Source of the DNA: an uncultured Limosilactobacillus sp.
GTDB lineage: Bacteria > Bacillota > Bacilli > Lactobacillales > Lactobacillaceae
Assembly (NCBI RefSeq): GCF_934202705.1
Contig: NZ_CAKPYE010000008.1
Coordinates: 12,528-76,527 of the forward strand
DNA: 64,000 nucleotides
Direction: 5' to 3'
The notes under the pieces are model-generated. The model worked only from the letters and a program-made list of their open reading frames with translations. It made no database searches and was not told the DNA's origin. Position numbers and translations under genes: made by a program. Numbering within the stretch: position 1 is the stretch's first letter; each line of letters begins with the position of its first letter. Of this stretch, positions 7,107-21,847 are shown piece after piece.

Positions 7107-7112
7107 CAATGA

Positions 7113-7142
7113 ATGATCGTGCGGGAGCGCGGTCATTTTTTG
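7113..7142 (+). terminator. Rho-independent terminator
   Basis: atgatcgtgc (7113-7122) / gcgcggtcat (7127-7136) with two G-U pairs, then a T-run. Marks the left edge of the AT-rich island. Confidence 0.65.
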
Positions 7143-7380
7143 TAAAATAATTGAATAGTTACGGTTTATTTAAGGACATTCAGATTATATAATTTATTTA
7201 ATCATTAAAATTCAGCTTCATAGTAGAATTAAGGGATGTCAGAAAATAGTATATATTTGAAGGTGTTATGTTACGTAATTATTAGGAGAGACTATATTTA
7301 CTAAAATATGGAGATTTACTCAAACATTACTGCAAATGAGATACAGTATACATTTGGAAATTTTATGAGGAGTTTTACTT

Positions 7381-8913
7381 TTGGCAACTAAATCAAAAGA
7401 ATTAAATATTGAAGATAAATTATGGAAAGCAGCTGATGCATTACGAGGAAGCATGGATGCTTCAGAATACCGAAATGTTGTATTAGGATTAATTTTCTTG
7501 AAGTATGCTTCTGATTCATTTGAAGAGCGGCGTCAGGAATTATTGAAGACAGATTATCCCGATGACGCTGAAGATCCTGATATGTATCTTGAGAATAATA
7601 TTTTTTGGGTACCACAAGAAGCGCGTTGGAAGAAGATTGAGCATGCTGCTAAGACACCGCAGATCGGTGAAGTAATTGATGATGCCATGACAGCAATTGA
7701 AAAGAGTAATGATTCATTTCGAGGAATTCTGAGTAAGAACTATGCTTCTCCTGATTTGGACAAGACTCGTCTAGGAGAAGTAGTTGACTTAATCTCTGAT
7801 ATTAAGGTCGGCAATAAAGAGTCAATTGACAAAGATGTATTAGGCCGAGTATATGAATACTTCTTAAACGAATTTGCTAGTCAAGAAGGAAAGCACGGTG
7901 GTGAATTCTATACGCCACGATCAATTGTTAAGATTCTGGTTGAAATGATTGAACCGTATAAGGGACGAATTTATGATCCTTGTTGTGGTTCTGGCGGAAT
8001 GTTTGTTCAATCGGAAGAGTTCGTTAGACGCCACCAAGGGGAACTAAAGGATTTACATGTTTTCGGTGAAGAATCCAACCCAACAACTTGGAAATTAGCA
8101 AAAATGAATTTGGCTATTCGGGGAATTGACAGTGACCTAGGACCTCATCAAGGTGATACCTTTACTAATGACTTACATAAGGGTGTACGCTTTAACTACA
8201 TTCTGGCTAATCCACCATTTAACATTAAAAAGTGGGGTGGAGAAAAGCTACAAGATGATGCTCGGTGGAAGTATGGGGTTCCACCAACAGGAAATGCTAA
8301 CTATGCTTGGATTGAGCATATTATTAGTAAGCTAGCTCCTGATGGTAAGGCAGGCTTCGTTCTTGCTAATGGAGCATTGTCAACATCAAATAAGGAAGAG
8401 CTAGCAATTCGTAAAGCAATCCTAGAAGATGATAAGATTGATGCCATCGTTGCTTTGCCAGAAAAGATGTTTTATTCGACCGGAATTCCAGTTTCACTGT
8501 GGTTTGTCGATATGAACAAGGAATCAGCTGATGAGCGTTCACGGAAAGGTGAAACACTATTTATTGATGCTCGTAACCTCGGTGAAATGATTGATCGGAC
8601 TCACCGAGCATTTAATGCTGAAGATATTAAAAAGGTTGCTGATACTTATCACGCTTACCGTGGAACAAATAAGCAAGAATACAAAGATATTGCCGGATTT
8701 TGTAAAATTGCTAAATTAGATGAAATTGCGAAAAATGATTATGTATTAACACCGGGGCGTTATGTAGGGCTAGCTAAACAAGAAGACGATGGTGAGCCTT
8801 ATGAGGTTAAGATGAAACGTCTGACGGGTGAATTAAAGAAACAGTTTGAGGAGAGCAATAAACTGCAAGCTCAAATTAAAGATGTTTTGAAGGAGCTTGG
8901 TTATGAGATATAG
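7381..8913 (+). CDS. hsdM: Type I restriction-modification DNA methyltransferase subunit M
   Basis: 510 aa, TTG start after gaggag. HsdM N-terminal LWKAADALRG, SAM motif IYDPCCGSGGMF, catalytic LANPPFN. Confidence 0.95.
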   Translation: MATKSKELNIEDKLWKAADALRGSMDASEYRNVVLGLIFLKYASDSFEERRQELLKTDYPDDAEDPDMYLENNIFWVPQEARWKKIEHAAKTPQIGEVIDDAMTAIEKSNDSFRGILSKNYASPDLDKTRLGEVVDLISDIKVGNKESIDKDVLGRVYEYFLNEFASQEGKHGGEFYTPRSIVKILVEMIEPYKGRIYDPCCGSGGMFVQSEEFVRRHQGELKDLHVFGEESNPTTWKLAKMNLAIRGIDSDLGPHQGDTFTNDLHKGVRFNYILANPPFNIKKWGGEKLQDDARWKYGVPPTGNANYAWIEHIISKLAPDGKAGFVLANGALSTSNKEELAIRKAILEDDKIDAIVALPEKMFYSTGIPVSLWFVDMNKESADERSRKGETLFIDARNLGEMIDRTHRAFNAEDIKKVADTYHAYRGTNKQEYKDIAGFCKIAKLDEIAKNDYVLTPGRYVGLAKQEDDGEPYEVKMKRLTGELKKQFEESNKLQAQIKDVLKELGYEI

Positions 8914-9415
8914 GAATGTGTACCTTAAAGATATTGCAGAAATAGTAATGGGACAATCACCTAAGTCGACCTTCTATAACAATGAAGGGGATGGAATGCC
9001 TTTTTTACAAGGTGTAAGAACATTCGGTGAAAATTACCCGCAAATAGATACCTATACTACAGCTTTTAATCGAGTAGCTAGCTCAGGCGAGATCTTATTT
9101 AGCGTTAGGGCTCCGGTTGGTAGAGTAAATTGGGCCAATCAAAAAATAGCTATAGGTCGTGGATTAGCTAGCATAAAGGTAAAAAATGGTTATTCAAAAG
9201 AATATCTATATTATTTTTTTAAGAGAATAGGAGATCACTTAGATTCGATAGCAACGGGAACAGTATTTACGTCGATAAATAAGAAAGAATTAGAAGAACT
9301 TAAAATAAAAATTCCAGTTGAATTATGCGATCAAAAGAGAATAGCGAGATACTTAAGAAAAATTGATTTAAAAATTGAAAAGAATAATCAGATAAATGAT
9401 AATTTAGCGGCTTAA
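8903..9415 (+). CDS. hsdS: Type I R-M specificity subunit, half-length (TRD1-A plus central conserved region, stops 3 codons after NNQINDNL)
   Basis: ATG 8903 lies 7 nt after aaggag and overlaps the hsdM 3' end. One TRD plus ...KIEKNNQINDNLAA*. Compare the full-length paralog at 13232..14341, which continues NNQINDNLLELID... Confidence 0.85.
   Translation: MRYRNVYLKDIAEIVMGQSPKSTFYNNEGDGMPFLQGVRTFGENYPQIDTYTTAFNRVASSGEILFSVRAPVGRVNWANQKIAIGRGLASIKVKNGYSKEYLYYFFKRIGDHLDSIATGTVFTSINKKELEELKIKIPVELCDQKRIARYLRKIDLKIEKNNQINDNLAA
9383..9406 (+). repeat. 24-bp direct repeat, copy 1 (hsdS central conserved region, aataatcagataaatgataattta)
   Basis: The identical 24-mer occurs at 9383, 11546 and 13709 (spacing 2163 bp). 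Its last 14 nt (9393-9406) are an inverted repeat of 10018-10031. Confidence 0.95.
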
Positions 9416-10031
9416 AAGAATTTATTTAGTAAGTTTTTCTTTAACTTGACTAATTCTTTATTTTCAGTACTATTCGTATGAATTTGATCAAATATTGGCT
9501 GAGCAATGTTATTAAAACCATCTAATAAATCTTTTGTACTAGGTATTTTAATTTCTATGTTGCTAAAATCTGATTTATTTAAATTTTTGATAGTGGTACC
9601 ACCACTACCAAGATTTCCAATTTTATTTTTTAAGGATCTTAACTCAAGAAATACCCAATAGGTGTATTTATCATCAAGAATTAATGAATTAATCTGCTGA
9701 TTAGTTTGAACAGCTCTACCTGCTAATGAAACCAATCCTGGTGTTCCTATGCAACTAACCATTATTGTATTAGCAGGCAAATATTTATTTTTTTGTAAAT
9801 TAGCTCCCAATATAGAAAGATTTTGTGTGGTTTCATCTATAAATACTTTATTATGCATATCTGGAATTTTAACAAAAGGAACATCAGTGCCATAGTTTTC
9901 TCTAACCCTTGTGCTAGGTGTCTTCCCTGTAATAATATTTTTTGCTAATGCCTTTAAAGCGATTTTTCGACTAATATTGTGTCTATATTTATTCCAAATT
10001 AATGATATGAACTCAAGTAAATTATCATTTA
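9412..10031 (-). other. silent, promoterless inverted hsdS cassette (central region + TRD2-X + C-terminal conserved region), copy 1
   Basis: Minus-strand reading gives ...NDNLLEFISLIWNKY...GKTPSTRVRENYG...(TRD)...LKKNLLNKFF*. There is no TRD1 or credible start. The N-terminal 40 aa of track ORF 9412..10149 is antisense to the recombinase start region. Confidence 0.8.
10010..10031 (-). repeat. 22-bp inverted repeat (reverse complement of taaatgataatttacttgagtt), copy 1
   Basis: aactcaagtaaattatcattta is the exact reverse complement of 13719-13740, inside the active hsdS. Confidence 0.9.
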
Positions 10032-10086
10032 ATCCACAAAGCAACTCTATGTGGTGTATTATTTTTGAAAAACGGAGAATAATACA

Positions 10087-11061
10087 ATGCAAAGAGTGGA
10101 GTCGGAGAGAGTAATTCGGGAAATGTTGCCATATCTGAATAATAAGCAACTATTGCAACTGAAAAGTATATTAAGTGAATTGATGTCTACTTCTAATAAG
10201 AATGGTGATGATTCGAAGAATAATCAGCATTTGTTGCAGAAATATTTTGCTTCTAAGCGAGCTGAAGGATGTTCTGAGAAATCATTGAAGTATTATGAAA
10301 CTACTATTACTAAGGCTTTAGGTTCAATTGGAAAAGATGCTAAAGAGATTGTTACTGATGAGTTACGAAACTATTTAACTACTTATCAACGTACTCATAA
10401 TTCTAGTAAAGTTACGATTGACAATATTAGAAGAATCCTTTCTAGTTTTTTCAATTGGCTTGAAGATGAAGATTATATTATTAAAAGCCCAGTTAGACGA
10501 ATTCATAAGGTTAAGGTGTCAACAACTGTTAAGGAGACGTATTCCGATGAAGAATTGGAACGACTTCGTGATAATTGTGCTGAATTAAGAGATTTAGCGA
10601 TGGTTGATTTTTTAGCTTCAACTGGAATGCGGGTTGGTGAATTAGTATTACTTAATCGTGACGATATTAACTTTCAAGAACGAGAATGCATAGTGTTTGG
10701 TAAAGGTAATAAAGAACGAATCGCATATTTTGATGCTCGAGCCAAATTGCATTTACAGAAATATTTATATAGTCGAACAGATGATGAAAGTGCGCTATTT
10801 GTTTCTTTGTATGAAAAGCATACTCGTCTGACTATCGGCGGGGTAGAATCACGATTAAAACAATTGGGAAAACAAGTAGGGATAGCAAAAGTATATCCCC
10901 ATAAGTTTAGAAGAACGTTGGCAACAACTGCAATTGATAAGGGGATGCCAATAGAACAATTACAACGGCTTTTAGGACATAAACGAATAGATACGACCTT
11001 GCATTATGCAATGGTGAAGCAGCAGAATGTGAAGATAGCGCATAGAAAGTATATAGGGTGA
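10087..11061 (+). CDS. tyrosine site-specific recombinase (XerC/D-phage integrase family), shufflon recombinase copy 1
   Basis: 324 aa. Catalytic signature STGMRVGEL ... HKFRRTLAT ... LLGHKRIDTTLHY (R-H-R-Y). SD ggaga upstream. Confidence 0.9.
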   Translation: MQRVESERVIREMLPYLNNKQLLQLKSILSELMSTSNKNGDDSKNNQHLLQKYFASKRAEGCSEKSLKYYETTITKALGSIGKDAKEIVTDELRNYLTTYQRTHNSSKVTIDNIRRILSSFFNWLEDEDYIIKSPVRRIHKVKVSTTVKETYSDEELERLRDNCAELRDLAMVDFLASTGMRVGELVLLNRDDINFQERECIVFGKGNKERIAYFDARAKLHLQKYLYSRTDDESALFVSLYEKHTRLTIGGVESRLKQLGKQVGIAKVYPHKFRRTLATTAIDKGMPIEQLQRLLGHKRIDTTLHYAMVKQQNVKIAHRKYIG

Positions 11062-11068
11062 TTGAAAT

Positions 11069-11578
11069 TTGAAAGTAAAATTAAAAGATCTTGTAATTAT
11101 ATCTAACGATAGGGAACAAGTTGAGAATGTTAACTTAAATAATTATGTTAGTACGGAAAATCTCCTAGCTAATAGGAATGGCGTAAAATTCCCTGCTAAT
11201 AATATGCCATCAGCTAAAACAGTTAGCACCTATAAAAAAGGAGATATTTTAGTATCAAATATAAGACCATATTTTAAGAAAATTTGGAAAGCTAAATTTA
11301 ATGGCCCAAAATCAAATGATGTAATTGCTTTTAGAACGAATAGTCCAAGATTAATGCAAGATTACTTATATGTACTTTTGCAGTCTGATAATTTTTTTGA
11401 CTATGTAACTAGCACTGCTAAGGGTACTAAAATGCCTCGTGGTGATAAAAACGCAATAAGAAATTATACGTTTGAATTACCAAACTTAAATATTCAAAAG
11501 AAAATTGCTAATACTATTTTGGTAATAGAAGAAAAAGTAAAATTGAATAATCAGATAAATGATAATTTAGCGGCTTAA
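11069..11578 (+). CDS. hsdS: Type I R-M specificity subunit, half-length (TRD1-B plus central region, ...NNQINDNLAA*), product of the duplication junction
   Basis: TTG start 7 nt after the recombinase stop. Identical over 166 aa to the N-terminal half of 13232..14341 and ends at the same gcggcttaa junction as 8903..9415. Confidence 0.8.
   Translation: MKVKLKDLVIISNDREQVENVNLNNYVSTENLLANRNGVKFPANNMPSAKTVSTYKKGDILVSNIRPYFKKIWKAKFNGPKSNDVIAFRTNSPRLMQDYLYVLLQSDNFFDYVTSTAKGTKMPRGDKNAIRNYTFELPNLNIQKKIANTILVIEEKVKLNNQINDNLAA
11546..11569 (+). repeat. 24-bp direct repeat, copy 2
   Basis: aataatcagataaatgataattta, identical to 9383-9406. Confidence 0.95.
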
Positions 11579-12194
11579 AAGAATTTATTTAGTAAGTTTT
11601 TCTTTAACTTGACTAATTCTTTATTTTCAGTACTATTCGTATGAATTTGATCAAATATTGGCTGAGCAATGTTATTAAAACCATCTAATAAATCTTTTGT
11701 ACTAGGTATTTTAATTTCTATGTTGCTAAAATCTGATTTATTTAAATTTTTGATAGTGGTACCACCACTACCAAGATTTCCAATTTTATTTTTTAAGGAT
11801 CTTAACTCAAGAAATACCCAATAGGTGTATTTATCATCAAGAATTAATGAATTAATCTGCTGATTAGTTTGAACAGCTCTACCTGCTAATGAAACCAATC
11901 CTGGTGTTCCTATGCAACTAACCATTATTGTATTAGCAGGCAAATATTTATTTTTTTGTAAATTAGCTCCCAATATAGAAAGATTTTGTGTGGTTTCATC
12001 TATAAATACTTTATTATGCATATCTGGAATTTTAACAAAAGGAACATCAGTGCCATAGTTTTCTCTAACCCTTGTGCTAGGTGTCTTCCCTGTAATAATA
12101 TTTTTTGCTAATGCCTTTAAAGCGATTTTTCGACTAATATTGTGTCTATATTTATTCCAAATTAATGATATGAACTCAAGTAAATTATCATTTA
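11575..12194 (-). other. silent inverted hsdS cassette (TRD2-X), copy 2
   Basis: Translation identical to copy 1 (track ORFs 9412..10149 and 11575..12312 are identical). Confidence 0.8.
12173..12194 (-). repeat. 22-bp inverted repeat, copy 2
   Basis: Equals 10010-10031 shifted by 2163. Reverse complement of 13719-13740. Confidence 0.9.
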
Positions 12195-12249
12195 ATCCAC
12201 AAAGCAACTCTATGTGGTGTATTATTTTTGAAAAACGGAGAATAATACA

Positions 12250-13224
12250 ATGCAAAGAGTGGAGTCGGAGAGAGTAATTCGGGAAATGTTGCCATATCTG
12301 AATAATAAGCAACTATTGCAACTGAAAAGTATATTAAGTGAATTGATGTCTACTTCTAATAAGAATGGTGATGATTCGAAGAATAATCAGCATTTGTTGC
12401 AGAAATATTTTGCTTCTAAGCGAGCTGAAGGATGTTCTGAGAAATCATTGAAGTATTATGAAACTACTATTACTAAGGCTTTAGGTTCAATTGGAAAAGA
12501 TGCTAAAGAGATTGTTACTGATGAGTTACGAAACTATTTAACTACTTATCAACGTACTCATAATTCTAGTAAAGTTACGATTGACAATATTAGAAGAATC
12601 CTTTCTAGTTTTTTCAATTGGCTTGAAGATGAAGATTATATTATTAAAAGCCCAGTTAGACGAATTCATAAGGTTAAGGTGTCAACAACTGTTAAGGAGA
12701 CGTATTCCGATGAAGAATTGGAACGACTTCGTGATAATTGTGCTGAATTAAGAGATTTAGCGATGGTTGATTTTTTAGCTTCAACTGGAATGCGGGTTGG
12801 TGAATTAGTATTACTTAATCGTGACGATATTAACTTTCAAGAACGAGAATGCATAGTGTTTGGTAAAGGTAATAAAGAACGAATCGCATATTTTGATGCT
12901 CGAGCCAAATTGCATTTACAGAAATATTTATATAGTCGAACAGATGATGAAAGTGCGCTATTTGTTTCTTTGTATGAAAAGCATACTCGTCTGACTATCG
13001 GCGGGGTAGAATCACGATTAAAACAATTGGGAAAACAAGTAGGGATAGCAAAAGTATATCCCCATAAGTTTAGAAGAACGTTGGCAACAACTGCAATTGA
13101 TAAGGGGATGCCAATAGAACAATTACAACGGCTTTTAGGACATAAACGAATAGATACGACCTTGCATTATGCAATGGTGAAGCAGCAGAATGTGAAGATA
13201 GCGCATAGAAAGTATATAGGGTGA
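12250..13224 (+). CDS. tyrosine site-specific recombinase, copy 2 (identical translation to 10087..11061)
   Basis: The 324-aa translation in the track is identical to copy 1. Confidence 0.9.
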   Translation: MQRVESERVIREMLPYLNNKQLLQLKSILSELMSTSNKNGDDSKNNQHLLQKYFASKRAEGCSEKSLKYYETTITKALGSIGKDAKEIVTDELRNYLTTYQRTHNSSKVTIDNIRRILSSFFNWLEDEDYIIKSPVRRIHKVKVSTTVKETYSDEELERLRDNCAELRDLAMVDFLASTGMRVGELVLLNRDDINFQERECIVFGKGNKERIAYFDARAKLHLQKYLYSRTDDESALFVSLYEKHTRLTIGGVESRLKQLGKQVGIAKVYPHKFRRTLATTAIDKGMPIEQLQRLLGHKRIDTTLHYAMVKQQNVKIAHRKYIG

Positions 13225-13231
13225 TTGAAAT

Positions 13232-14341
13232 TTGAAAGTAAAATTAAAAGATCTTGTAATTATATCTAACGATAGGGAACAAGTTGAGAATGTTAACTTA
13301 AATAATTATGTTAGTACGGAAAATCTCCTAGCTAATAGGAATGGCGTAAAATTCCCTGCTAATAATATGCCATCAGCTAAAACAGTTAGCACCTATAAAA
13401 AAGGAGATATTTTAGTATCAAATATAAGACCATATTTTAAGAAAATTTGGAAAGCTAAATTTAATGGCCCAAAATCAAATGATGTAATTGCTTTTAGAAC
13501 GAATAGTCCAAGATTAATGCAAGATTACTTATATGTACTTTTGCAGTCTGATAATTTTTTTGACTATGTAACTAGCACTGCTAAGGGTACTAAAATGCCT
13601 CGTGGTGATAAAAACGCAATAAGAAATTATACGTTTGAATTACCAAACTTAAATATTCAAAAGAAAATTGCTAATACTATTTTGGTAATAGAAGAAAAAG
13701 TAAAATTGAATAATCAGATAAATGATAATTTACTTGAGTTAATTGATGTATATTTCTTAAAACTTTTAGATAATTCAACACTCATTGAAAAAACTATTAA
13801 TGACATTGGGAGTGTCGTTGGTGGTGGCACTCCTTCTAAGAAAAATAAAGATTATTGGAATGGTAGCATATCATGGATTACCCCTAAAGATCTCTCTCAG
13901 AATCCATCCGTTTTTACTTCGCATGGTGAAAACTTTATTACAGAATTAGGATTATCTAAAGGGAGTGCAAAGTTACTACCATCACACACAATTTTATTCA
14001 GTTCTCGAGCACCCATCGGTTATATTTCAATTGCTAAAAATAATATATCTACAAATCAGGGCTTTAAATCTATTATCCCTAATAAAAGATACTCATTTCA
14101 ATTTATTTATGAGTTAATGAAACATGAGACACAAGCAATCATAAATGAGGCTAATGGTTCAACATTTAAGGAAATATCAGGTAAAAGATTAAAGCAGCAT
14201 ATTGTTAAGGTCCCTCAAATAGAAAATATGGATAGATTCGATAAGCTAACATTACCGCTATTTAAACAAATAGAAAGTTTAGAAGAAGAAAATAGAAGTT
14301 TAGCAAAAATAAAAGAGCAATTACTAAACAAACTATTTTGA
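13232..14341 (+). CDS. hsdS: Type I R-M specificity subunit, full length (TRD1-B + central region + TRD2-Y + C-terminal region)
   Basis: 369 aa with two TRDs separated by KLNNQINDNLLELID, and C-terminal KEQLLNKLF. TTG start 7 nt after the recombinase stop. hsdR follows 52 nt downstream. Confidence 0.9.
   Translation: MKVKLKDLVIISNDREQVENVNLNNYVSTENLLANRNGVKFPANNMPSAKTVSTYKKGDILVSNIRPYFKKIWKAKFNGPKSNDVIAFRTNSPRLMQDYLYVLLQSDNFFDYVTSTAKGTKMPRGDKNAIRNYTFELPNLNIQKKIANTILVIEEKVKLNNQINDNLLELIDVYFLKLLDNSTLIEKTINDIGSVVGGGTPSKKNKDYWNGSISWITPKDLSQNPSVFTSHGENFITELGLSKGSAKLLPSHTILFSSRAPIGYISIAKNNISTNQGFKSIIPNKRYSFQFIYELMKHETQAIINEANGSTFKEISGKRLKQHIVKVPQIENMDRFDKLTLPLFKQIESLEEENRSLAKIKEQLLNKLF
13709..13740 (+). 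repeat. 24-bp direct repeat copy 3 (13709-13732) overlapping the 22-bp inverted-repeat arm (13719-13740)
   Basis: aataatcagataaatgataattta, then cttgagtt. taaatgataatttacttgagtt is mirrored at 10010-10031 and 12173-12194. Confidence 0.9.
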
Positions 14342-14393
14342 TTACTAAATTATCATTTATCCATCCAACCTAAAAGAAAGAGGTGATTAACCC

Positions 14394-17300
14394 ATGACAA
14401 GTTATTTTAATGAACAAGATGTTGAAGGAGTTGCTTTGCAATGCCTTGGTGATGTTGGTTATCAGGTGTATAAAAGTGCTAGTTATACGGGACCAAGCGT
14501 GATGATTGATGAAGAGCGAGATAATGATCATACTCAGGTTATCTTGAAAAAGAGACTAGCTAATGCTTTGCGAAAGATTAATCCCGGCTATAATGAGGAA
14601 ATTTACAAAAACGCAGTTCACCAGTTTGAACGATTAGCAGAAAGTCCAGATATGATGCTCAATAATCATAAGCTTCATCAACTTATTATCGGTGGTGCTA
14701 AGGTGAAGACATCTGACAATGGTGAAGACAGGACGTTTACCCTGTACCCGATTGACTTTAATAATGTCCATAATAATGATTTTATTGCGACTAACCAATT
14801 TACCGTCAAGCAAGGGGATCACGAGCGACGGCCAGATGTTACTCTCTTTATTAATGGCTTACCGTTAGTAACATTTGAGTTAAAAAATCCTGCTAATGTC
14901 AACGTAGGCATTCAGCAAGCCTTTGCACAACTGTCTACTTATAAATCAGAAATTCCAGAGTATATGCAATACAACGAAATTTTAATAATTTCGGATGGAA
15001 CTAATGCCCGTGCTGGTTCACTAACTGCGGGGATTGATCGTTTTATGCGTTGGCGTGAGCCAAGAGACGTTCAAGTTGATGAGTCGATGATGGAGCTTGA
15101 AATCTTAATTAAGTATATGCTTCGACCAGCTGATTTATTGAATTTAATTCAGAACTTTATTTTATTTGAAACTGACGGCGACAAGACTATTAAGATTCTT
15201 GCAGCGTACCACCAGTATTATATGGTAAACAAGGCGGTAAAACGGACTGCTAAGACGTTGAAGAACCCTGATGATGATCGAATTGGGGTCGTTTGGCATA
15301 CCACTGGTTCAGGCAAGTCATTATCAATGGTCTTTTATTCAGGGATTGTTGCACGCAAGCTTGGGAACCCAACAATCTTGGTAATTAATGACCGAAATGA
15401 TTTAGATGATCAGTTATACGGCACTTTTGCCTCGGCTCATGAATACTTACAGCAAAATCCGGATCATGCTGAATCTCGTGATGAAGTGCGCGAGTACATG
15501 AGTAAAAATTCTGGCGGGATTGTCTTTAGCACCATTCAAAAGTTTTCGCCTAGTTTTGAAGCTGGCGAAGAGCAGATGCCCGTATTAACTAATCGATCAA
15601 ACGTTATTGTCATGGTTGATGAAGCTCACCGTTCACAGTATGGAATGGAAGCAAAATTTACTGATAATGGTATTCGTTATGGCTATGCTAAATATTTACG
15701 GGAAGCCCTTCCCCATGCGTCATTTATTGGCTTTACTGGGACACCAATTAATAAGGCAGATAAATCGACAGTTGCAATGTTTGGTAATTATATTGATGTA
15801 TACGACATTACCCAAGCAGTTAACGATCACGCGACAGTTCGAATCTATTATGAAAGTCACGTGTTCCCGCTAAAGCTAAAGAAAAATGCAATTGCGGAAT
15901 ATCAGAAGTTAATCAAAGAAGCGGGGATTAATGATGATCCTAACCTGCGAGAAAATGAGCGGCGTAATCGGGCTTTCACTCGCTTAGAAGCTCTTGCTGG
16001 TGCTAAGCCACGTTTAGAGAAGATTGCCCAACACTTCGTTCACCATTTTGAAGCTCGTCAAAAAGAAGAATTTGGGAAGTCAATGATTGTTGAAATGTCC
16101 CGTCGGAATGCAATTAAGCTCTATAATGAAATTATTAAGCTACGACCTGAATGGGCAAGTGATGATATTAATAAGGGTAAAATCAAGGTTATTATGACCT
16201 CTAATGCTTCTGATGGTCCAGAGTTTGCTAAATTTAAGACGAGCAAGCAGGATCGTTTTACGCTGCAAAAACGGATGAAGGATAATCATGACGAACTACA
16301 AATTGTGATTGTCGTTGATATGTGGTTGACTGGCTTTGATGTGCCTAGTATGAATACAATGTATATTGATAAACCGATGCAGGGTCATAACTTAATTCAA
16401 GCAATTGCCCGGGTTAATCGGGTCTTCAAAAATAAGGATAGCGGCTTAATCGTTGACTATATCGGTATTGCCGATGCCCTTAAATTTGCTTTGAACGTTT
16501 ACTCGAAGGACGATCAAGGAAAAGTCGGCATCAATGTTGATCGGGCATTAATGTTGTTAAAAGAAAAGTACGATATTGTTAAAGAGGACTTCTTATACGG
16601 AATTGATTACTCTGGCTATGATTCAGAAGATAAGGCAACTAGACAAAAGGCAGTTAATAAGGCAGTTAATGAATTAGAAGCCGAGGACGATGAAACTAAG
16701 CAAAAATTCTTTGACGTTGTTACAGAATTGCAAAAAGCTTATGCCTTAGTATCAACTCAGCCCGAAGCCCAAGAATTAGGTGCTGAGATTGCCTTCTTTA
16801 AGATTGTAAAAGTATCGCTTACTAAACTTGATGCTACTGCTGAATATGATGGTAGCAATGGTGATCATCCCCATTCAGCGGTGGATTATCGAATGCAACA
16901 GTTATTAGATCAATCAATTATTTCCGAACCGAATGTGGATATTTACCGCGATTTAGGACTAGAACGGCCAAACTTGGATTTAATCTCTGATCAATTTTTG
17001 AAAAAAGTAAATGAGATTGAAGAAAAAGACGTTGCCGTTGCGTTACTTGAAAAGCTATTAAAAGGGCAAGTAAAGGCTTATCAGCGGACGAACATTGTAA
17101 AGGGTAAGAAGTTTGAAGAGCTACTACAAAAGTCGATTGACGATTACAATAAGCGGGGAATCACCAGTGAAATCGTAATCCGTAAGCTGATTGATATGGC
17201 AAAGGAAATCAATAAGGAACAACAGGAAGGAAAGAATCTGGGCCTTTCTAAAGAAGAAGTTGCTTTCTATGATGCCTTAGCCGATCATGAAAAAGCGGTT

Positions 17301-17528
17301 CAAGAATTAGGCGAGAAGAAACTACATTTAATTGCGGCAGAATTAGTTAAAACAGTTAAACAGCAGGCTGGTGTTGACTGGCAAAGACGGAGTAACGTTC
17401 GAGCAAAGATGCGGGTAGCTGTTAAACATTTATTACGTAAATATGGTTATCCACCTGACATTGCACCAGATGCCATTAAAACTGTAGTAAGTCAAGCAGA
17501 GCAAATGGCAACTAATGAAAATAATTAA
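14394..17528 (+). CDS. hsdR: Type I restriction enzyme R subunit (helicase-nuclease)
   Basis: 1044 aa. Walker A HTTGSGKSLSM, DEAH box VMVDEAHRSQ, later helicase motifs (GFTGTP, QAIARVNR). Confidence 0.95.
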   Translation: MTSYFNEQDVEGVALQCLGDVGYQVYKSASYTGPSVMIDEERDNDHTQVILKKRLANALRKINPGYNEEIYKNAVHQFERLAESPDMMLNNHKLHQLIIGGAKVKTSDNGEDRTFTLYPIDFNNVHNNDFIATNQFTVKQGDHERRPDVTLFINGLPLVTFELKNPANVNVGIQQAFAQLSTYKSEIPEYMQYNEILIISDGTNARAGSLTAGIDRFMRWREPRDVQVDESMMELEILIKYMLRPADLLNLIQNFILFETDGDKTIKILAAYHQYYMVNKAVKRTAKTLKNPDDDRIGVVWHTTGSGKSLSMVFYSGIVARKLGNPTILVINDRNDLDDQLYGTFASAHEYLQQNPDHAESRDEVREYMSKNSGGIVFSTIQKFSPSFEAGEEQMPVLTNRSNVIVMVDEAHRSQYGMEAKFTDNGIRYGYAKYLREALPHASFIGFTGTPINKADKSTVAMFGNYIDVYDITQAVNDHATVRIYYESHVFPLKLKKNAIAEYQKLIKEAGINDDPNLRENERRNRAFTRLEALAGAKPRLEKIAQHFVHHFEARQKEEFGKSMIVEMSRRNAIKLYNEIIKLRPEWASDDINKGKIKVIMTSNASDGPEFAKFKTSKQDRFTLQKRMKDNHDELQIVIVVDMWLTGFDVPSMNTMYIDKPMQGHNLIQAIARVNRVFKNKDSGLIVDYIGIADALKFALNVYSKDDQGKVGINVDRALMLLKEKYDIVKEDFLYGIDYSGYDSEDKATRQKAVNKAVNELEAEDDETKQKFFDVVTELQKAYALVSTQPEAQELGAEIAFFKIVKVSLTKLDATAEYDGSNGDHPHSAVDYRMQQLLDQSIISEPNVDIYRDLGLERPNLDLISDQFLKKVNEIEEKDVAVALLEKLLKGQVKAYQRTNIVKGKKFEELLQKSIDDYNKRGITSEIVIRKLIDMAKEINKEQQEGKNLGLSKEEVAFYDALADHEKAVQELGEKKLHLIAAELVKTVKQQAGVDWQRRSNVRAKMRVAVKHLLRKYGYPPDIAPDAIKTVVSQAEQMATNENN

Positions 17529-17825: not shown

Positions 17826-18746
17826 ATGAATAAAACTGACTATAAAAGAAGATCTGTTGAGAAAGCAATAGTTATGGCTCTAAGAGATTTGGGTGGCTCA
17901 GCAAGTCGAAAAGTCATTAGAAAATCAATGGCTGACAACGGATACGATGGATTAACCTACGATCAAGTTTTCTATACAAAACGAGGGAAAACAGGCACAT
18001 ATTCTCCTTTTATGTTTGACTTTAATTTTGGAATTAGAAACTTATATACAGTTGGCTATATTGAAAAACCAGAACGTGGGAAAGATATTGTATTAACAAA
18101 TCTCGGACAGAATAACAGTCTTAAAAGTTATCCAACAAAAGAGCAAGAACAAAGAATGGCTGAGTATTGGCACAAAAAAGATCAAGAGCGAGCTGAAAGA
18201 CATGCTTCCAAAGCCAAAATGGATATAAAAGAAAGTGAAGATGCCGCAACGGGGTCGGATGATCAAGAAGACACTGATAATTTAGGATGGAAATCTCAAT
18301 TATTAAATCAATTAATGAAATTTGATCCTGCAAAGTTTGAAAGTTTTTCACGGTTACTGATTTCAAAAATGGGAGTGACTATCGATAAAAAACGTGGGAT
18401 TGTCCGATCTGGAGATCATGGTATTGATGGTTTTGGATACTTTACCTCTGATGAATTTCGAACCAGTCGTGTAGCAATTCAATGTAAAAGGTACACAACT
18501 GGTGCAGTTTCCGAACCTGAAATTGATAAATTTAAAGGGGTAATGGATAGCTTTAATGCTGAATATGGAATTTTCATTACTACTAATTACTTTACGCCAC
18601 GGGCAAGATCTAAGGCGACGCAAGGTAATAACACCGTCACATTAATTGATGGGCAGGAATTAGCTGATCTTGTTGAAAAATATCAATTGCATATTACTCC
18701 TATCACCACATATGCATTAGATGATTATTATTTTGATTTAAAATAG
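17826..18746 (+). CDS. Mrr-like restriction endonuclease (N-terminal winged helix + C-terminal Mrr_cat PD-(D/E)xK domain)
   Basis: 306 aa. GDHGIDGFGYF...VAIQCKRYT...EPEIDKFKGVM...GIFITTNYFTPRA...LIDGQELADL matches the Mrr catalytic-domain pattern. Confidence 0.8.
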   Translation: MNKTDYKRRSVEKAIVMALRDLGGSASRKVIRKSMADNGYDGLTYDQVFYTKRGKTGTYSPFMFDFNFGIRNLYTVGYIEKPERGKDIVLTNLGQNNSLKSYPTKEQEQRMAEYWHKKDQERAERHASKAKMDIKESEDAATGSDDQEDTDNLGWKSQLLNQLMKFDPAKFESFSRLLISKMGVTIDKKRGIVRSGDHGIDGFGYFTSDEFRTSRVAIQCKRYTTGAVSEPEIDKFKGVMDSFNAEYGIFITTNYFTPRARSKATQGNNTVTLIDGQELADLVEKYQLHITPITTYALDDYYFDLK

Positions 18747-18752: not shown

Positions 18753-19106
18753 TTGGAAACAGACTATACAACACTCAAACATCGAGAAGATGGTGTCATT
18801 AATCAAGATCCTCTGGGATTACAAAGGGTGTATGTTCAAGTGAAACGTTATGCATCTGACAACTCGGTGGGATGACCTGAGATAGCTGGATTTAGTGGAG
18901 TAATTAAATTGAAACACGCTAATCGTGGTGTGTTTATTACAACTTCTACATTTACAAGCGGAGCTGTACAGGTAGCCAGAGATTTAGATATTACTTTAGT
19001 TGATAGAGAAATGCTAACAAACTTAATGGTGAAGTATGGTGTGGGTGGCGAAGTGAAAAAACAGTATCGTACTTACCGTATTAATGCTGATGACTTTATT
19101 GAATAA
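18753..19106 (+). pseudogene. mrr remnant: 5'-truncated C-terminal Mrr_cat fragment with an in-frame TGA
   Basis: A single frame reads ...EDGVINQDPLGLQRVYVQVKRYASDNSVG*PEIAGFSGVIKLKHANRGVFITTSTFTSGAVQVARDLDITLVDREMLTNLM... The TGA is at 18873-18875, where Mrr proteins have VGRPEI (CGA->TGA). No N-terminal domain; starts right after the stop of 17826..18746. Confidence 0.75.
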
Positions 19107-19172
19107 ATGTGATTAATTTAAAAATACCTTCCATTAATGAATAATTAGAGATCTTCTTTTTAAAGAAAGTGG

Positions 19173-20573
19173 GTGAATTTTATCCGATTTTATAGCATAA
19201 GTAATGGTCAACAAGATCAATTAAAAAATATGGTAAAAAAGGGTCTTCTTGCTTGTTTACCAGATGGAGAACGGTGGATGATTTTATCCCTTAGCCAGAG
19301 TAACAATTCTAAAAGCATTTATGTTTATCTTTATAATGCAGGTAATATTTACCCAATTAGAGTATCTGATCATTCAACTTGGTTTCGATTTGTTGACACA
19401 GAGTATTTTAATATTAAAGTTGACTTAAAATGTGATATTCCATTAGTTGAACAAATAAAAGAACAGTTTGAAATAGCAACTGCTCCAACGGTGAAGCTGG
19501 ATCTTCCAGAATTTTTAATACTAGAAATGGTTTATTCAACCCATGAGGCTTATAATCCGATCGGTATTTTTATTCGTGATAATGGAACTTTAACGATAGA
19601 AAGAACAAATGAGGGTAAACCAGTTGCGATAAATAATTCGAATGTTTATCAAATTTTTGAAAAGTTAATAAAAATTAACTTGATTAAAGTTCATACAAAT
19701 GGCTATTTATCAGTAACTCATAATGGGTTAGATATTTTACGCAAGTATAAACGACTAAGATTAAGATCTTGGCCAAAATCAATTAGAGAGTATGATTGGT
19801 GGTCAACTCTTCATCAAGTATATTTAATTATTGATTCTAAAGGGTCTCATAAAAGTTATAGTAAAAACGCTAAACCAGATTATCATGAAGATTTAGATTA
19901 TTATTACGAATTGTTTAATCTTAAAAAGAATACTTCTACTAAAAAAGAAGGTATTCAAGCTAAGAAAGAATCACCTAAATTATGGAGAACTCAGCTTATT
20001 AATTGTCTAAAGGGCTCATTGCCTTATGGTTCAACCTTAGTTGCTATAACTTCTGTTACAAGAAAAAGAATTATATATGTTCAAATTATGGCTGGTGATC
20101 TTTTATATATGGTATGTTTCAGTTCTGATAGGAAAGAATGTATGGAAGATAGCCCAAACATCTGCATCCTACCAGATAAAATTTCAAATTTAAAAAAGCA
20201 TTTTACTAAAACATTCCCATTATATAATTTCAGGTATACAAAGGTAGATCAAAAATCACTTTTATGGCTTCGTTATTTGCAATTAATTAATGAATCAAAA
20301 AGAGAATATGTAATTAATTTGTCAAAGGAAAATGTGAATATAGAAGACCATAATCATATTTCTAGAGTCCTTCCAAAGCCAGAAGCTAAACGTTATCAAT
20401 TAATGGTTAAATTATGTTGGGTTGATGAATTGAACAATTTGGTTAGTATCTCTGATATTGGTAAACAAATACTTGAAAATTATTCAAAAACAATTATCAA
20501 TAAATCCATGTCTTGGAACTTGCAGATTCAAAGAATGAAACTAAAAACAATAGAGAATCTTTTGAATATATAG
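19173..20573 (+). CDS. hypothetical protein (466 aa) built from two homologous ~200-aa halves
   Basis: Start uncertain (GTG 19173 or ATG 19230). Half 1 LLACLPDGERWMILSLSQSNNSKSIYVYLYNAGNIYPIRVSDH...YQIFEKLIKINLIKVHTNGYLSVTHNGLDILRKY parallels half 2 LKGSLPYGSTLVAITSVTRKRIIYVQIMAGDLLYMVCFSSDR...YQLMVKLCWVDELNNLVSISDIGKQILENY. No family recognised. Confidence 0.6.
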   Translation: MNFIRFYSISNGQQDQLKNMVKKGLLACLPDGERWMILSLSQSNNSKSIYVYLYNAGNIYPIRVSDHSTWFRFVDTEYFNIKVDLKCDIPLVEQIKEQFEIATAPTVKLDLPEFLILEMVYSTHEAYNPIGIFIRDNGTLTIERTNEGKPVAINNSNVYQIFEKLIKINLIKVHTNGYLSVTHNGLDILRKYKRLRLRSWPKSIREYDWWSTLHQVYLIIDSKGSHKSYSKNAKPDYHEDLDYYYELFNLKKNTSTKKEGIQAKKESPKLWRTQLINCLKGSLPYGSTLVAITSVTRKRIIYVQIMAGDLLYMVCFSSDRKECMEDSPNICILPDKISNLKKHFTKTFPLYNFRYTKVDQKSLLWLRYLQLINESKREYVINLSKENVNIEDHNHISRVLPKPEAKRYQLMVKLCWVDELNNLVSISDIGKQILENYSKTIINKSMSWNLQIQRMKLKTIENLLNI

Positions 20574-20585
20574 GAGTTTTAATAA

Positions 20586-21191
20586 ATGATTGTATGGTCA
20601 ATCCAACCTTATGAAGTCTATGAACAATTGCTTACTAAGGGCACTTTCATTTGTGATCCAGCTAAGTCTATAAACTTGCAGAGTGATTTGGAATTCAATG
20701 TTCATGATTTTGAAAATGCCTATAATTGGATGATTAAACAAATGAATCGAAGAATTGGTAATCCTCCGAATGGTGTCACGTTACCTGTTTGGGTTTGGTA
20801 TAAGTATAATTATTCGCATCGTCATCCAGATTTTCGGACATATCGCGACTATGATAATCAAGTTTGCTTAGAGTTGAATATTCCAGAGAATCAAATACTT
20901 TTAAGCGATTATGATAACTGGCACTTTGTTTTAAATGACTGGTATTTAAATGATGCTAAAAGTGATGAAGAATGGCATAAGAAAGATGACTGGTTTGATA
21001 ATTTGTCTCCGCTTAAACAAAAACGAGTGAAAGAAAGATCTTGGCAACGTATATTTGACGTGACACCAAGAAAAGGTGAATGGACACAAAATGGTGCTTT
21101 TGTTCAAGGATGCTGTTGGTATTTTAAGAAAGACCAAATTAGCCATGTTTGGTATTCAAAGAAGGGACAACGTTGTCAGCAGATTTTGTAA
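20586..21191 (+). CDS. hypothetical protein, DUF3841-like (recollection only)
   Basis: 201 aa. SD aggag. 12-nt gap after the 466-aa gene. N-terminus MIVWSIQPYEVYEQLLTKGTFICD resembles the DUF3841 start pattern as remembered. Trp/Tyr-rich. Confidence 0.45.
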   Translation: MIVWSIQPYEVYEQLLTKGTFICDPAKSINLQSDLEFNVHDFENAYNWMIKQMNRRIGNPPNGVTLPVWVWYKYNYSHRHPDFRTYRDYDNQVCLELNIPENQILLSDYDNWHFVLNDWYLNDAKSDEEWHKKDDWFDNLSPLKQKRVKERSWQRIFDVTPRKGEWTQNGAFVQGCCWYFKKDQISHVWYSKKGQRCQQIL

Positions 21192-21224: not shown

Positions 21225-21265
21225 CCTCATGTTGGAAGTGAACTCCAACATGAGGATTTTATTTT
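21225..21265. terminator. bidirectional Rho-independent terminator at right edge of island
   Basis: 12-bp perfect stem cctcatgttgga (21225-21236) / tccaacatgagg (21244-21255), with an A-run before and a T-rich run after. Confidence 0.85.
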
Positions 21266-21324: not shown

Positions 21325-21720
21325 TTAATATACCAGCGGCGCCACTTTCTCCTGCAACCACTTAGCTGCCGCTTTGCTATCAATCCGCGTGAATGGTGCA
21401 GGGTGGATCAGTCGATCATCGACGTTAAAGAGTTTCAGTTGGCCCTTAACTTTAATTGGTTCAATCCAGTAGGAACCGCCTTTGGCAAATGACGCAATTT
21501 TCCATGCGTAGTAAACTCCTTTCGCATCTTCTCGTTGAATAATGTCATAAATTTTTGCCACGCACAGTGCATAACCCGGCACGGTCCCGTGAATTTTCTT
21601 TGCAGTATTACAAATTAGCAGGTCACCGCGGTACGGGGTACTCCAGGTCCGATATTCTTCAATTTTTTGGCCTAACATGATGTCCAAAGCCGCATCGGGC
21701 CGAATCGATAAAGCTTTCAT
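21325..21720 (-). CDS. ASCH (PUA-like) domain protein
   Basis: Track ORF trimmed to ATG 21720 (SD ggggagag). MKALSIRPDAALDIMLGQKIEEYRTWSTPYRGDLLIC is the typical ASCH N-terminal pattern. Confidence 0.65.
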   Translation of the reverse strand: MKALSIRPDAALDIMLGQKIEEYRTWSTPYRGDLLICNTAKKIHGTVPGYALCVAKIYDIIQREDAKGVYYAWKIASFAKGGSYWIEPIKVKGQLKLFNVDDRLIHPAPFTRIDSKAAAKWLQEKVAPLVY

Positions 21721-21847
21721 TGTCTCTCCCCATTTGTCAGTTTTTAAATCATTATAACAAGTTTGCGTCATATCATTACCTTTGTAATCGCTAACAATGT
21801 ATAATAAAAGTGTCTATAAATGTTACCAAATAAGGGAGGCTGACAAA

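Follow-up and report, generated by a model that had tools for sequence, protein, structure and literature searches.

An internally duplicated protein and a DUF3841 protein encoded by a low-GC gene pair at the edge of a Limosilactobacillus restriction hot spot

Introduction

In E. coli, the hsd-mrr-mcrBC genes form the 'immigration control region'. The window examined here, a 64,000-nucleotide stretch of DNA from an uncultured Limosilactobacillus, likewise carries a Type I restriction-modification (R-M) locus followed by Mrr on one strand, and a pair of genes, encoding a protein of 466 aa and a DUF3841 protein of 201 aa, lies behind them. To our knowledge, no accessory protein of the DUF3841 kind features in descriptions of how Mrr and GmrSD work. 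A DUF3841 gene occurs repeatedly within a few nucleotides downstream of Mrr or GmrSD genes, an adjacency that makes it a putative Type IV accessory.

Other described systems offer partial parallels. DUF3841 resembles members of the DarT/ADP-ribosyltransferase (ART) superfamily in size (about 200 aa) and perhaps in its predicted split-sheet alpha/beta architecture, but the TM is about 0.3, there is no sequence-profile similarity, and neither the canonical His/Arg of strand beta-1 nor the catalytic Glu can be identified. Furthermore, DarG, the macrodomain partner in DarTG, is absent beside DUF3841 and, unlike the DarT toxin, DUF3841 is tolerated alone. Tandem-domain nucleic-acid binders (tandem winged-helix, dsRBD and HIN proteins) share with the 466-aa protein its basic character and its two homologous modules of ~200 residues, but give no significant structural or sequence match with it; tandem dsRBD and HIN-200 proteins appear among the fold matches of its model at noise level. 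Finally, the pair has in common with the PDC/HEC 'guilt by association' candidates of PADLOC a low GC content, relaxed selection and a variable island context, whereas a large share of DUF3841 genes stand solo in ordinary neighbourhoods and neither protein matches a model of that collection.

Results

Organization of the gene pair

The gene of the 466-aa protein occupies positions 19173-20573 of the forward strand (GTG start, TAG stop) and is followed on the same strand by the single-domain DUF3841 gene (PF12952; 20586-21191, ATG start). These ORF coordinates are identical to those of an earlier note on this DNA, which had described a co-oriented pair separated by 12 nt. An AGGAG Shine-Dalgarno motif on the forward strand (20572-20576), 9 nt before the ATG of the DUF3841 gene, overlaps the TAG stop of the upstream gene (junction between stop and start: TAGGAGTTTTAATAAATG). 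Since the motif overlaps this stop codon, translational coupling of the two genes is likely; in the relatives, the 466-family gene and the DUF3841 gene overlap by 4 nt. Upstream of the pair, a weak sigma-70-like promoter match is found on the forward strand (19117-19145, TTTAAA-17-AATAAT, 9/12 positions), in an AT-rich region where promoter-like sites are not enriched (10 found vs 16.6 expected) and have no statistical support. At the 3' side, the terminator announced in the earlier note is present as an intrinsic-terminator hairpin with a 12-bp stem (21225-21265, the hairpin itself at 21225-21255), preceded by an A-tract and followed by a T-tract; five terminator-like sites were found across the region vs 1.4 expected. 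This terminator, located between the convergent DUF3841 and ASCH genes, is probably bidirectional. An Rfam search at this position returned merely a generic hairpin below threshold, no RNA genes were found in the region and no repeats flank the pair. The pair reads as an operon of low GC content that ends in a terminator and has a coupled ribosome-binding site between its genes.

The GC content is 0.288 for the 466-aa gene and 0.348 for the DUF3841 gene vs 0.44-0.47, as is also the case in relatives, and the base composition of both genes is foreign. The claim that the pair lies in the AT-richest part of the island is nearly right: the 11-12 kb bin is as low (0.283) as the 466-aa gene.

Flanking genes and variable site

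The upstream part of the island carries HsdM, hsdS cassettes, HsdR, Mrr and an mrr relic, which reproduces the previously reported succession of a Type I R-M system, Mrr and an mrr remnant. The intact Mrr-type enzyme (306 aa, forward strand, 17826-18746) is a Type IV, modification-dependent restriction endonuclease, with a strong match to Pfam Mrr_cat (E=1.9e-29), a weak match to Pfam Mrr_N and a PADLOC mREase_IV match (E=5e-20). The relic (forward strand, 18792-19106) retains the C-terminal ~100 codons of a second, different mrr gene, interrupted by an in-frame stop. In tblastn alignments, within which the stop falls, it is 38% identical to the intact Mrr (residues 204-286) and 36% identical to the Mrr of locus L010, and its 65-aa ORF matches Mrr_cat (Pfam, E=3.6e-7). 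The relic ends 66 nt before the start of the 466-aa gene. On the other side, an ASCH-domain gene on the reverse strand (21325-21771, Pfam ASCH E=2.5e-5) delimits the variable region on the right. With 86-91% identity across relatives, a dN/dS of 0.02-0.05 and a GC content of 0.447, it is a conserved backbone neighbour outside the module.

The pair, next to ASCH, occupies the inner end of a variable hot spot of restriction/defence genes. At the same site, relatives carry GmrSD, a degraded GmrSD together with a Type I R-M system, or a GIY-YIG/Schlafen-type helicase. All three lineages that bear the 466-family gene have a Type IV gene, or what is left of one, immediately upstream of it in the same orientation: an mrr relic (the window), GmrSD (L001) and a degraded GmrSD (L004).

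Selection and divergence

Both are genuine, intact genes that evolve under purifying selection, with dN/dS values of 0.26-0.31 (466-aa gene) and 0.11-0.32 (DUF3841) vs 0.02-0.04 for the backbone at comparable dS. Their coupling is conserved in the three lineages across about 50% protein divergence. At the site of the pair, identity is 64-66% vs 92-95% for the flanking genes; at a second site (L049, L092 and L055), DUF3841 is 57-74% identical vs 93-98% for rlmCD. At both of these separate sites, DUF3841 diverges far faster than the genes around it. A horizontal replacement of the pair was considered and dismissed: its dS is the same as for the backbone and its nucleotide identity falls off gradually, which indicates that the pair was inherited vertically and that its proteins evolve fast.

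The 466-aa protein is an internal duplication

The two homologous halves proposed in the earlier note are borne out by profile alignment and by the repeated predicted secondary structure. Since BLASTP of one half against the other gave no signal (best E=4.7), profiles were needed to reveal the duplication. Indeed, hhalign of a 10-sequence profile of the N-half against an 8-sequence profile of the C-half gave a probability of 97.2% (E=4e-11, score 75) over 185 collinear columns with 13% identity, and 30 column-shuffled controls and one reversed control scored <=16.6. In the AlphaFold model, the order of secondary-structure elements is identical in both halves, which are joined by a disordered linker. 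The internal duplication is real, though invisible to BLASTP.

Family alignments, hhalign and the model delimit the N-terminal repeat to residues 1-225 (19173-19847, forward strand), where per-residue pLDDT is mostly 80-90. This repeat carries the motif W-x-I-x-S-x-S...S-x-Y-x-Y-L-Y...I-R-x-S-D-H, followed by a helix/hairpin block ending in V-T-H-N-G-x-D-x-L-x-K-Y...W-P; residues S48, Y50, Y52, R63, H67, G185 and W200 are near-invariant in the family alignments. Residues 226-265 (19848-19967, forward strand) form a predicted disordered linker, with pLDDT <50 at 224-264, and it is within this linker that a frameshift splits the 466-family gene of one relative (L129). The C-terminal repeat, delimited by hhalign and the model, comprises residues 266-466 (19968-20573 with the TAG stop, forward strand) and is a degenerate copy of the N-half: L-P-Y-G...R-K-R-x-x-Y-x-Q...W-L-R-Y...G-W-V...I-G-x-Q-I-L-x-N-Y...S-W. 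The polar motif R-x-S-D-H, kept in the N-repeat, is not retained in the C-repeat.

The protein is basic (pI 9.3) and, as stated before, carries no catalytic motif recognised by Pfam, NCBIfam, PADLOC or PHROGs. The winged-helix-like block of the earlier note finds weak backing in a below-threshold HTH_45 match (Pfam, E=0.05, 14 bits vs a cut-off of 25.5) and a fold match to MarR (2qww_D, probability 0.63, E=0.57). No relation of the halves to Mrr_N (probability <=2%) or to DUF3841 was detected by hhalign. Sequence searches gave no match among Pfam families, PADLOC models or PDB chains, nor a match in the viral-structure collection BFVD. With Foldseek, the model returned only noise from PDB (best E=0.07) and BFVD, where three matches at E<0.001 had a TM of merely about 0.1.

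The 466-aa protein is almost an orphan: its true relatives number about nine in 1.84 billion representatives, and this tiny family includes frameshifted and truncated members. A pattern scan of GTDB genomes found no member, and in tblastn searches neither protein of the pair was found in GenBank phages, the 466-aa protein being also absent from plasmids. The single-half homologues P0021 (N-half) and P0024 (C-half) were rejected as proof of modularity, being one gene split by a frameshift, and P0022 (1,007 aa, with Sushi repeats) is a spurious match.

DUF3841 family and its genomic neighbourhoods

The 201-aa protein, previously called DUF3841-like, is a full-length member of PF12952 (E=1.2e-29, 103.7 bits vs a gathering score of 27), its residues 3-185 aligning to profile positions 2-177 of 178. 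It is Trp-rich (12 W), with a pI of 6.6 (family median 5.9). Its conserved core consists of Y46, W48, P67, W69, W71, P81, D82, R84, D108, W112, H113, N117, S152, W153, Q174 and W178, and the PF12952 family core (Y46, W48, P-x-W-x-W, D108, W112, H113, N117 and Q174) is common to it. The family comprises at least 686 protein clusters. DUF3841 proteins are about 190 aa long, widespread, fast-evolving and stand-alone, and no match to DUF3841 was obtained at E<=1e-3 in 50,697 GenBank phage records. Neither protein of the pair matches any PADLOC family at E<=1 (PADLOC-DB v2, 5,027 models including candidate families), or any PHROGs or NCBIfam entry, and a literature search returned no mention of DUF3841 or PF12952.

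Mrr is followed by DUF3841 after 2-21 nt in L049, L092, L010/L053 and L130, whose Mrr proteins are mutually only 65-73% identical. GmrSD precedes DUF3841 in L098 and follows it in L050, and a GIY-YIG/Schlafen-type helicase precedes it in L036. Type IV genes occupy the position immediately beside DUF3841 (+/-1) in 5/86 cases, and the remaining positions of these loci in 1/327 (Fisher p=0.002, or p=0.03 when loci of the same site count as one event; the lineages are not fully independent). Other immediate neighbours of defence type are AbiH, NOV_C, PD-T4-1 (E=2e-66), PDC-S01 (E=3e-153), PDC-S36 and GajB-like helicases, bringing the defence-type share to roughly 10-12/86. The neighbourhood check proposed earlier thus came out in favour of an enrichment of DUF3841, in general, next to defence genes. 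On plasmids and phages, a DNA methyltransferase gene adjoins DUF3841 in B. breve pMP7017 (overlapping), in Photobacterium, and in L135 and L138, and an integrase or recombinase gene does so in L131 and L141. Type IV genes and mobile-element methyltransferases as neighbours of DUF3841 are a new observation.

Most neighbours are heterogeneous. Many close homologues stand solo among housekeeping genes, namely RNA methyltransferase genes (rlmCD in three lineages, and rlmH), sugar genes and the nucleoside operon deo; no mrr relics were found in the gaps upstream of these solo genes. The DUF3841 genes of L092 and L098 contain in-frame stops beside intact nucleases, so that DUF3841 is dispensable there, unless the stops are assembly errors. 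Since Mrr and GmrSD are unrelated nucleases, their shared neighbour argues against a specific protein-protein partnership of either with DUF3841.

The pairing is restricted to one clade and one site

The check on co-occurrence of homologs turned out against recurrent pairing. The two genes are found together only in one Limosilactobacillus clade, in three lineages and at one orthologous chromosomal site. Since all occurrences are orthologous, between the variable region and ASCH, the pairing is effectively one evolutionary event. A 466-family gene was present in none of the other DUF3841 loci (0/80 metagenomic and 0/21 viral, or 0/101), and no DUF3841 gene was found in the flanks, which are short, of the distant 466-family genes. 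L036 has an intact DUF3841 gene at this site but no 466-aa gene, and the homology breakpoint falls exactly at the DUF3841 start codon. Each gene is thus also found intact without the other, which argues against both a conserved two-gene system and a toxin-antitoxin pair.

The DUF3841 model weakly resembles ADP-ribosyltransferases

The model of DUF3841 is confident and alpha/beta (pLDDT 87.9, pTM 0.81). Foldseek on predicted models, run as had been suggested, gave noise for the 466-aa protein and weak ART-fold matches for DUF3841. Every non-antibody top match of DUF3841 in PDB has the ADP-ribosyltransferase fold: DarT (five times), pertussis toxin S1, PltA, TreX, CC0527 (DUF952) and BC2332. The best DarT match reached E=0.024, probability 0.75 and TM 0.34, and none was at E<=1e-3. 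By its model, DUF3841 would thus weakly resemble ADP-ribosyltransferases such as DarT. For the triad expected in the order beta-1, beta-2/3, beta-5 (H-Y-E, R-S-E or H-H-h), neither the canonical H-Y-E nor R-S-E could be placed: strand beta-1 shows W4-[ST]5-x-Q7 in place of H or R, and distant members do not keep E96. Q174 is found in all members. Weak Pfam matches over 14 members revealed no recurrent family of the ART clan, and searches of PDB chains by sequence, with the single sequence or with profiles of 14 and 60 sequences, gave no match.

A separate lead to NAD+ comes from a viral contig (L143) with the gene order Nmnat-Nudix, Nampt, DUF3841, where DUF3841 overlaps the Nampt stop; Nmnat-Nudix with Nampt constitutes the NARP2 pathway (bioRxiv 10.1101/2024.02.11.579819). 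Among about 150 other DUF3841 or 466-family loci, no further NAD+ genes were found beyond the PnuC gene next to L013/L014.

Discussion

We favour, tentatively and with less than even confidence, a lineage-specific operon of two conflict-type genes, acting in defence or in its control, at the promoter-distal end of a modified-DNA restriction locus. Under this reading, the pair is not a self-contained, widely conserved two-gene system. In the proposed mechanism, DUF3841 would have an ART-like split beta-sheet whose conserved Trp, Tyr, Gln and Asp residues line a cleft that could bind NAD+ or a (possibly modified) nucleotide; its target may be nucleic acid or the neighbouring nuclease, so that it would modulate restriction or add an effector to it. 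A basic pseudo-dimer, with one ~200-residue module present twice per chain, is the form proposed for the 466-aa protein; in the Limosilactobacillus clade its gene presumably came to lie between those of the nuclease and DUF3841 by insertion and was coupled to the translation of DUF3841. By its charge and the weak winged-helix hints it would probably bind DNA, and its part would be targeting or control. A bolder and rather unlikely extension would place DUF3841 on both sides of modified-DNA conflict, as a so far unrecognised class of small ART-like proteins that depend on NAD+: an accessory effector or switch of chromosomal Type IV enzymes (Mrr, GmrSD), and, on phages and plasmids, a partner of protective methyltransferases and NAD+ reconstitution. 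The 466-aa protein would then be a pseudo-dimeric DNA sensor of new fold recruited in Limosilactobacillus.

Several other readings account for part of these data. DUF3841 could be a restraint or anti-restriction factor that shields self DNA from Mrr or GmrSD and, on plasmids and phages, blocks Type IV enzymes drawn by methylation, with the 466-aa protein as an added regulator. Its position downstream of Mrr or GmrSD within one operon, the methyltransferases beside it on four independent mobile elements, the proximity of the L143 copy to NARP2, a known counter-defence cassette, the tolerance of solo copies, as for orphan antitoxin-like genes, and its fast evolution would all fit. However, Mrr (PD-(D/E)xK) and GmrSD (DUF262/DUF1524) are so different that a shared inhibitor family must act on DNA rather than on the enzyme, neither the protein nor its family is acidic like DNA mimics, the GenBank phage records lack it, and intact nucleases persist next to stop-bearing DUF3841 genes in L092 and L098; we regard this reading as improbable. 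An equally doubtful one denies any conflict role: DUF3841 would belong to the flexible genome as a minor protein of nucleic-acid or nucleotide metabolism, the 466-aa gene would be a lineage-specific passenger in decay, and both would lie next to restriction genes only because defence islands insert at shared hot spots. The solo copies near rlmCD, rlmH, the deo operon and sugar genes, the heterogeneous neighbours and the tiny 466-aa family with its damaged members point that way. Yet the identity gaps to the flanking genes at both sites are unlike those of housekeeping enzymes, Type IV genes are concentrated at +/-1 and not merely nearby, the 2-3 nt gaps between Mrr and DUF3841 indicate co-translation, and both genes are under purifying selection.

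The earlier note had proposed a candidate defence or accessory module, possibly a nucleic-acid-binding sensor with a small partner; as a model, the 466-aa protein would be the sensor and DUF3841 the effector of an autonomous new two-gene anti-phage system. Part of this stands, since the genes are real, intact and in a restriction/defence hot spot; a recurrent, self-contained module is not supported. The tight coupling kept in three lineages despite their divergence, the island location with low GC and relaxed selection, and the lack of a known function for either protein speak for it, but the three occurrences amount to one event, the other DUF3841 loci lack a 466-family gene, the distant 466-family genes lack DUF3841 nearby and in L036 the 466-aa gene was lost or never there, which leaves such a system distinctly unlikely. 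Highly implausible is a DarTG-like toxin-antitoxin pair, in which the 466-aa protein would be the antitoxin to DUF3841, a toxin that would ADP-ribosylate DNA as DarT does. DarT is indeed the best fold match of DUF3841, and an upstream gene is coupled to a downstream one as in toxin-antitoxin operons. On the other hand, many genomes carry DUF3841 as a solo gene, and L036 keeps it intact and conserved without the 466-aa gene, a state impossible for a free toxin, and this strongly suggests that DUF3841 would be non-toxic when expressed alone. Moreover, Pfam detects no macrodomain or other known antitoxin domain in the 466-aa protein, and there is no PADLOC match to DarT or DarG and no PDB DarT chain found by sequence or profile.

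Under the favoured reading of two conflict-type genes at a modified-DNA restriction locus, both are good candidates for phage-defence experiments, their defence role being putative. The 466-aa near-orphan, with no structural relative in PDB or BFVD, is a clean target for structure determination. If DUF3841 truly works with modification-dependent restriction enzymes, it would be an added component for those enzymes, and a function would be assigned to a whole protein family. An ART-like, NAD+-linked activity of DUF3841, if true, would join the restriction of modified DNA to NAD+-centred immunity and counter-immunity, an active field. In the gut and food bacteria of the genus Limosilactobacillus, the variable restriction hot spot to which the locus belongs will affect transformability and phage sensitivity.

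The pair in the window and its surroundings

Both open reading frames lie on the forward strand where the earlier note had placed them, the 466-aa gene at 19173-20573 (GTG start, 466 aa) and the DUF3841 gene at 20586-21191 (ATG start, 201 aa), with an intergenic gap of 12 nt. An AGGAG ribosome-binding site overlaps the TAG stop codon of the former and is located 9 nt 5' of the ATG of the latter. The 201-aa product is a full-length DUF3841 protein (PF12952; E=1.2e-29). Between the DUF3841 gene and a convergent ASCH-domain gene on the reverse strand (21325-21771) stands a hairpin with a 12-bp stem and a T-run (21225-21265); a search of this region against Rfam matched the hairpin alone, below threshold. 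ASCH is a PUA-like fold, and the gene is kept in all relatives with 86-91% identity and a dN/dS of 0.02-0.05; it marks the fixed right border of a variable region. The GC content is 0.288 in the 466-aa gene and 0.348 in the DUF3841 gene (GC3 0.20 and 0.30), and 0.44-0.47 in the three genes beyond the pair. A GC dip is also seen at 24-25 kb.

On the 5' side, a Type I restriction-modification (R-M) locus with HsdM, several hsdS cassettes, two integrases and HsdR is followed by an intact Mrr and then by a relic of another mrr gene, different from the first. This relic is 38% identical to the intact Mrr, carries an in-frame stop and ends 66 nt 5' of the 466-aa gene. The Type I locus itself (7381-17528) looks phase-variable; hsdS fragments and inverted hsdS genes are situated 3' of HsdM, and then comes HsdR. 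It contains a 2,163-bp tandem duplication (9361-9660 versus 11524-11823, 97% identical) that includes two copies of a tyrosine integrase gene (10087-11061 and 12250-13224), and a third, partial copy lies at 13687.

The 466-aa protein is a duplicated, nearly orphan protein

The proposal that the 466-aa protein is built of two homologous halves is borne out by profile comparison, shuffle controls and an AlphaFold model; the duplication is real. BLASTP of the N-half against the C-half gave no match. Using a family alignment built from the ten matches of an exhaustive search, query counted, the profiles of the two halves aligned with a score of 75 (probability 97.2%, E=4e-11) over 185 collinear columns at 13% identity, and the controls, 30 column-shuffles and a reversal, all scored 16.6 or less. 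In the model (pLDDT 75 overall, mostly 80-90 in the domains), the element order H-EEEE-H-H-EEE-H-EE-H occurs on either side of a disordered linker (residues 224-264). A polar motif (S48, Y50, Y52, R63, D66, H67) is kept in the N-half and absent from the C-half. Two apparent single-half homologues, P0021 (N-half) and P0024 (C-half), were rejected as such, being separately catalogued ORFs of one gene with a frameshift in the linker (L129, 2-1545).

The 466-aa protein, which is basic (pI 9.3), is close to an orphan. A word-index search of 5.8 billion proteins found only three clusters, and among 1.84 billion representatives there were only ten matches, including the query itself and a Sushi-repeat protein that was discarded as spurious. 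The protein was not found in Pfam, NCBIfam, PADLOC or PHROGs, nor in GenBank phage records, PLSDB plasmid records or IMG/VR contigs, and it matched no PDB chain by sequence. Fold searches gave nothing meaningful in the PDB (best E=0.07), and the three matches with E<0.001 in BFVD had a TM-score of only about 0.1. The sole domain fusion observed in the family is P0026, a distant metagenomic member of 678 aa whose C-terminal part is a putative nitroreductase domain of the TM1586 type (PF14512, E=3e-23).

The pairing is seen at one chromosomal site

The backbone gene 3' of the pair is 93% identical to its counterpart in Ca. L. excrementigallinarum, which places the window in Limosilactobacillus. 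In the relatives L001 and L004-L009, which carry 50%-identical homologues of the 466-aa protein, the order is 466-aa gene, DUF3841, ASCH (reverse strand), 3HCDH and a DapB_N-domain gene, and the first two genes overlap by 4 nt. The 5' genes vary: L001 has GmrSD, and L004 has Type I R-M together with a degraded GmrSD. At the same site in L036 (Ca. Limosilactobacillus excrementigallinarum), DUF3841 is present and the 466-aa gene is replaced by a gene for a 549-aa GIY-YIG and Schlafen-group-3 helicase (DUF2075; 7068-8717); homology with the window starts precisely at the DUF3841 start codon. A 1,596-aa protein encoded 5' of this helicase gene is read as adhesin-like, with a C-terminal LPXTG-type anchor. 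Two genes past the DapB_N-domain gene, a Gp49/HTH_3 pair resembling the HigB/HigA toxin-antitoxin is found in L001 (7245-7879), with an equivalent in L004-L009. About 6-9 kb 3' of the pair, the cydA, cydB and cydCD ABC-transporter genes are called as several fragments in the strains bearing P0003 (L004, L006-L008), which suggests that respiration genes of this lineage have become pseudogenes; the cytochrome bd and cydCD genes are intact in L001.

The two-gene module of the earlier note proved narrower than proposed. DUF3841 forms a family of at least 686 clusters, all single-domain and of about 190 aa. None of 80 metagenomic DUF3841 loci (489 ORFs) carried a 466-family gene, nor did any viral contig scanned, 21 of which have DUF3841, and the short flanks of distant 466-family genes contained no DUF3841. 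Close DUF3841 homologues are often solo amid housekeeping genes, 3' of gatCAB-DAGK-rlmCD in three lineages and 3' of rlmH in one. Since the pairing is not general and DUF3841 often stands alone, a toxin-antitoxin relationship, in either direction, is very unlikely.

Both genes evolve rapidly

Between the window and its relatives, protein identity is 92-95% for the backbone, 64-66% for DUF3841 and 50% for the 466-aa protein. Nucleotide identity declines gradually (0.80, 0.72, 0.65) and dS is similar throughout, which fits vertical descent with rapid protein evolution rather than replacement of the pair by transfer. The 466-aa gene has a dN/dS ratio of 0.26-0.31, DUF3841 one of 0.11-0.32, and backbone genes have 0.02-0.04. 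Both genes of the pair are functional and evolve under relaxed or partly diversifying selection. At the rlmCD site of three relatives, rlmCD is 93-98% identical, whereas the DUF3841 alleles are only 57-74% identical.

Structural and contextual leads for DUF3841

The DUF3841 model is confident (pLDDT 87.9, pTM 0.81). Its fold search against the PDB gave no match at E≤1e-3; the non-antibody matches near the top all have the ADP-ribosyltransferase (ART) fold, namely DarT from three organisms, pertussis toxin S1, PltA, TreX, CC0527 and BC2332, the best with E=0.024, probability 0.75 and TM 0.34. Sequence profiles gave no match, and the canonical ART triad could not be placed. The universal residues (Y46, W48, P67-x-W69-x-W71, D108, W112, H113, N117, Q174) are aromatic or polar and lie on strands. 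In the viral contig L143 (IMGVR_UViG_3300050821_007648, 2411-5636), DUF3841 follows Nmnat-Nudix and Nampt, the NARP2 pathway of phage NAD+ reconstitution (bioRxiv 10.1101/2024.02.11.579819), and overlaps the Nampt stop codon by 4 nt; a 111-aa ORF and a phrog_1250 protein come next. This cassette context was seen at this single locus and did not recur among about 150 loci. P0018 is a full-length homologue of the 466-aa protein, with 28% identity to it; its gene (L013/L014) is just 5' of a PnuC NMN/nicotinamide-riboside transporter gene, which may be a second NAD+-related context, perhaps a coincidental one. In L014, the P0018 gene is directly 3' of a 107-aa Terminase_2-like ORF. A link of DUF3841 to ART or NAD+ chemistry should be regarded as a lead rather than a finding.

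DUF3841 recurs beside modification-dependent restriction genes

In L049, L092, L010/L053 and L130, Mrr immediately precedes DUF3841 on the same strand at a distance of 2-21 nt, and these Mrr proteins share only 65-73% identity. GmrSD lies immediately 5' of DUF3841 in L098 and immediately 3' in L050. When the window, L001/L004 and L036 are counted as well, DUF3841 is associated, at no fewer than two chromosomal sites, with two Type IV families that are unrelated to each other and with a GIY-YIG helicase. In the sampled loci, Type IV genes occupy the positions immediately flanking DUF3841 in 5/86 cases versus 1/327 elsewhere (p=0.002; p=0.03 after same-site loci were collapsed). Its other immediate neighbours include AbiH, NOV_C, PD-T4-1, PDC-S01, PDC-S36 and GajB-like helicases. 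On mobile elements, L131 and L141 have an integrase or recombinase gene next to DUF3841, and an RNA-repair HAD domain is also adjacent in L141. In L092 (4001-4600, by an intact Mrr) and L098 (4001-4597, by an intact GmrSD), DUF3841 contains in-frame stops or frameshifts; either these copies are decaying or the assemblies are in error. Neither pair protein is present in PADLOC, and the literature search found no paper naming DUF3841 or PF12952. Two observations are new, the association with Type IV genes and the duplication verified in an orphan fold.

The best explanation, which we hold tentatively, is that DUF3841 contributes an activity to the restriction locus. The same proximity to Mrr and GmrSD could reflect a gene that holds Type IV enzymes in check, which we consider unlikely. 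That DUF3841 is a mere bystander at a hot spot of insertion appears improbable to a similar degree. The autonomous two-gene system first proposed is less probable still, as it fits the distribution data poorly, and a DarTG-like toxin-antitoxin pair, in spite of the DarT-like fold matches, also fits them poorly and is highly improbable.

In our view, this is a restriction locus to which uncharacterised, putatively accessory genes are attached. We read the pair, tentatively, as the distal part of a locus directed at modified DNA, and the 466-aa pseudo-dimer as a clade-specific addition that is probably coupled to DUF3841 in translation. On mobile elements (pMP7017, Photobacterium, L135, L138), DUF3841 adjoins DNA methyltransferases. 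DUF3841 may be a fast-evolving conflict gene; it keeps company with Type IV nucleases in chromosomes and with methyltransferases on mobile elements.
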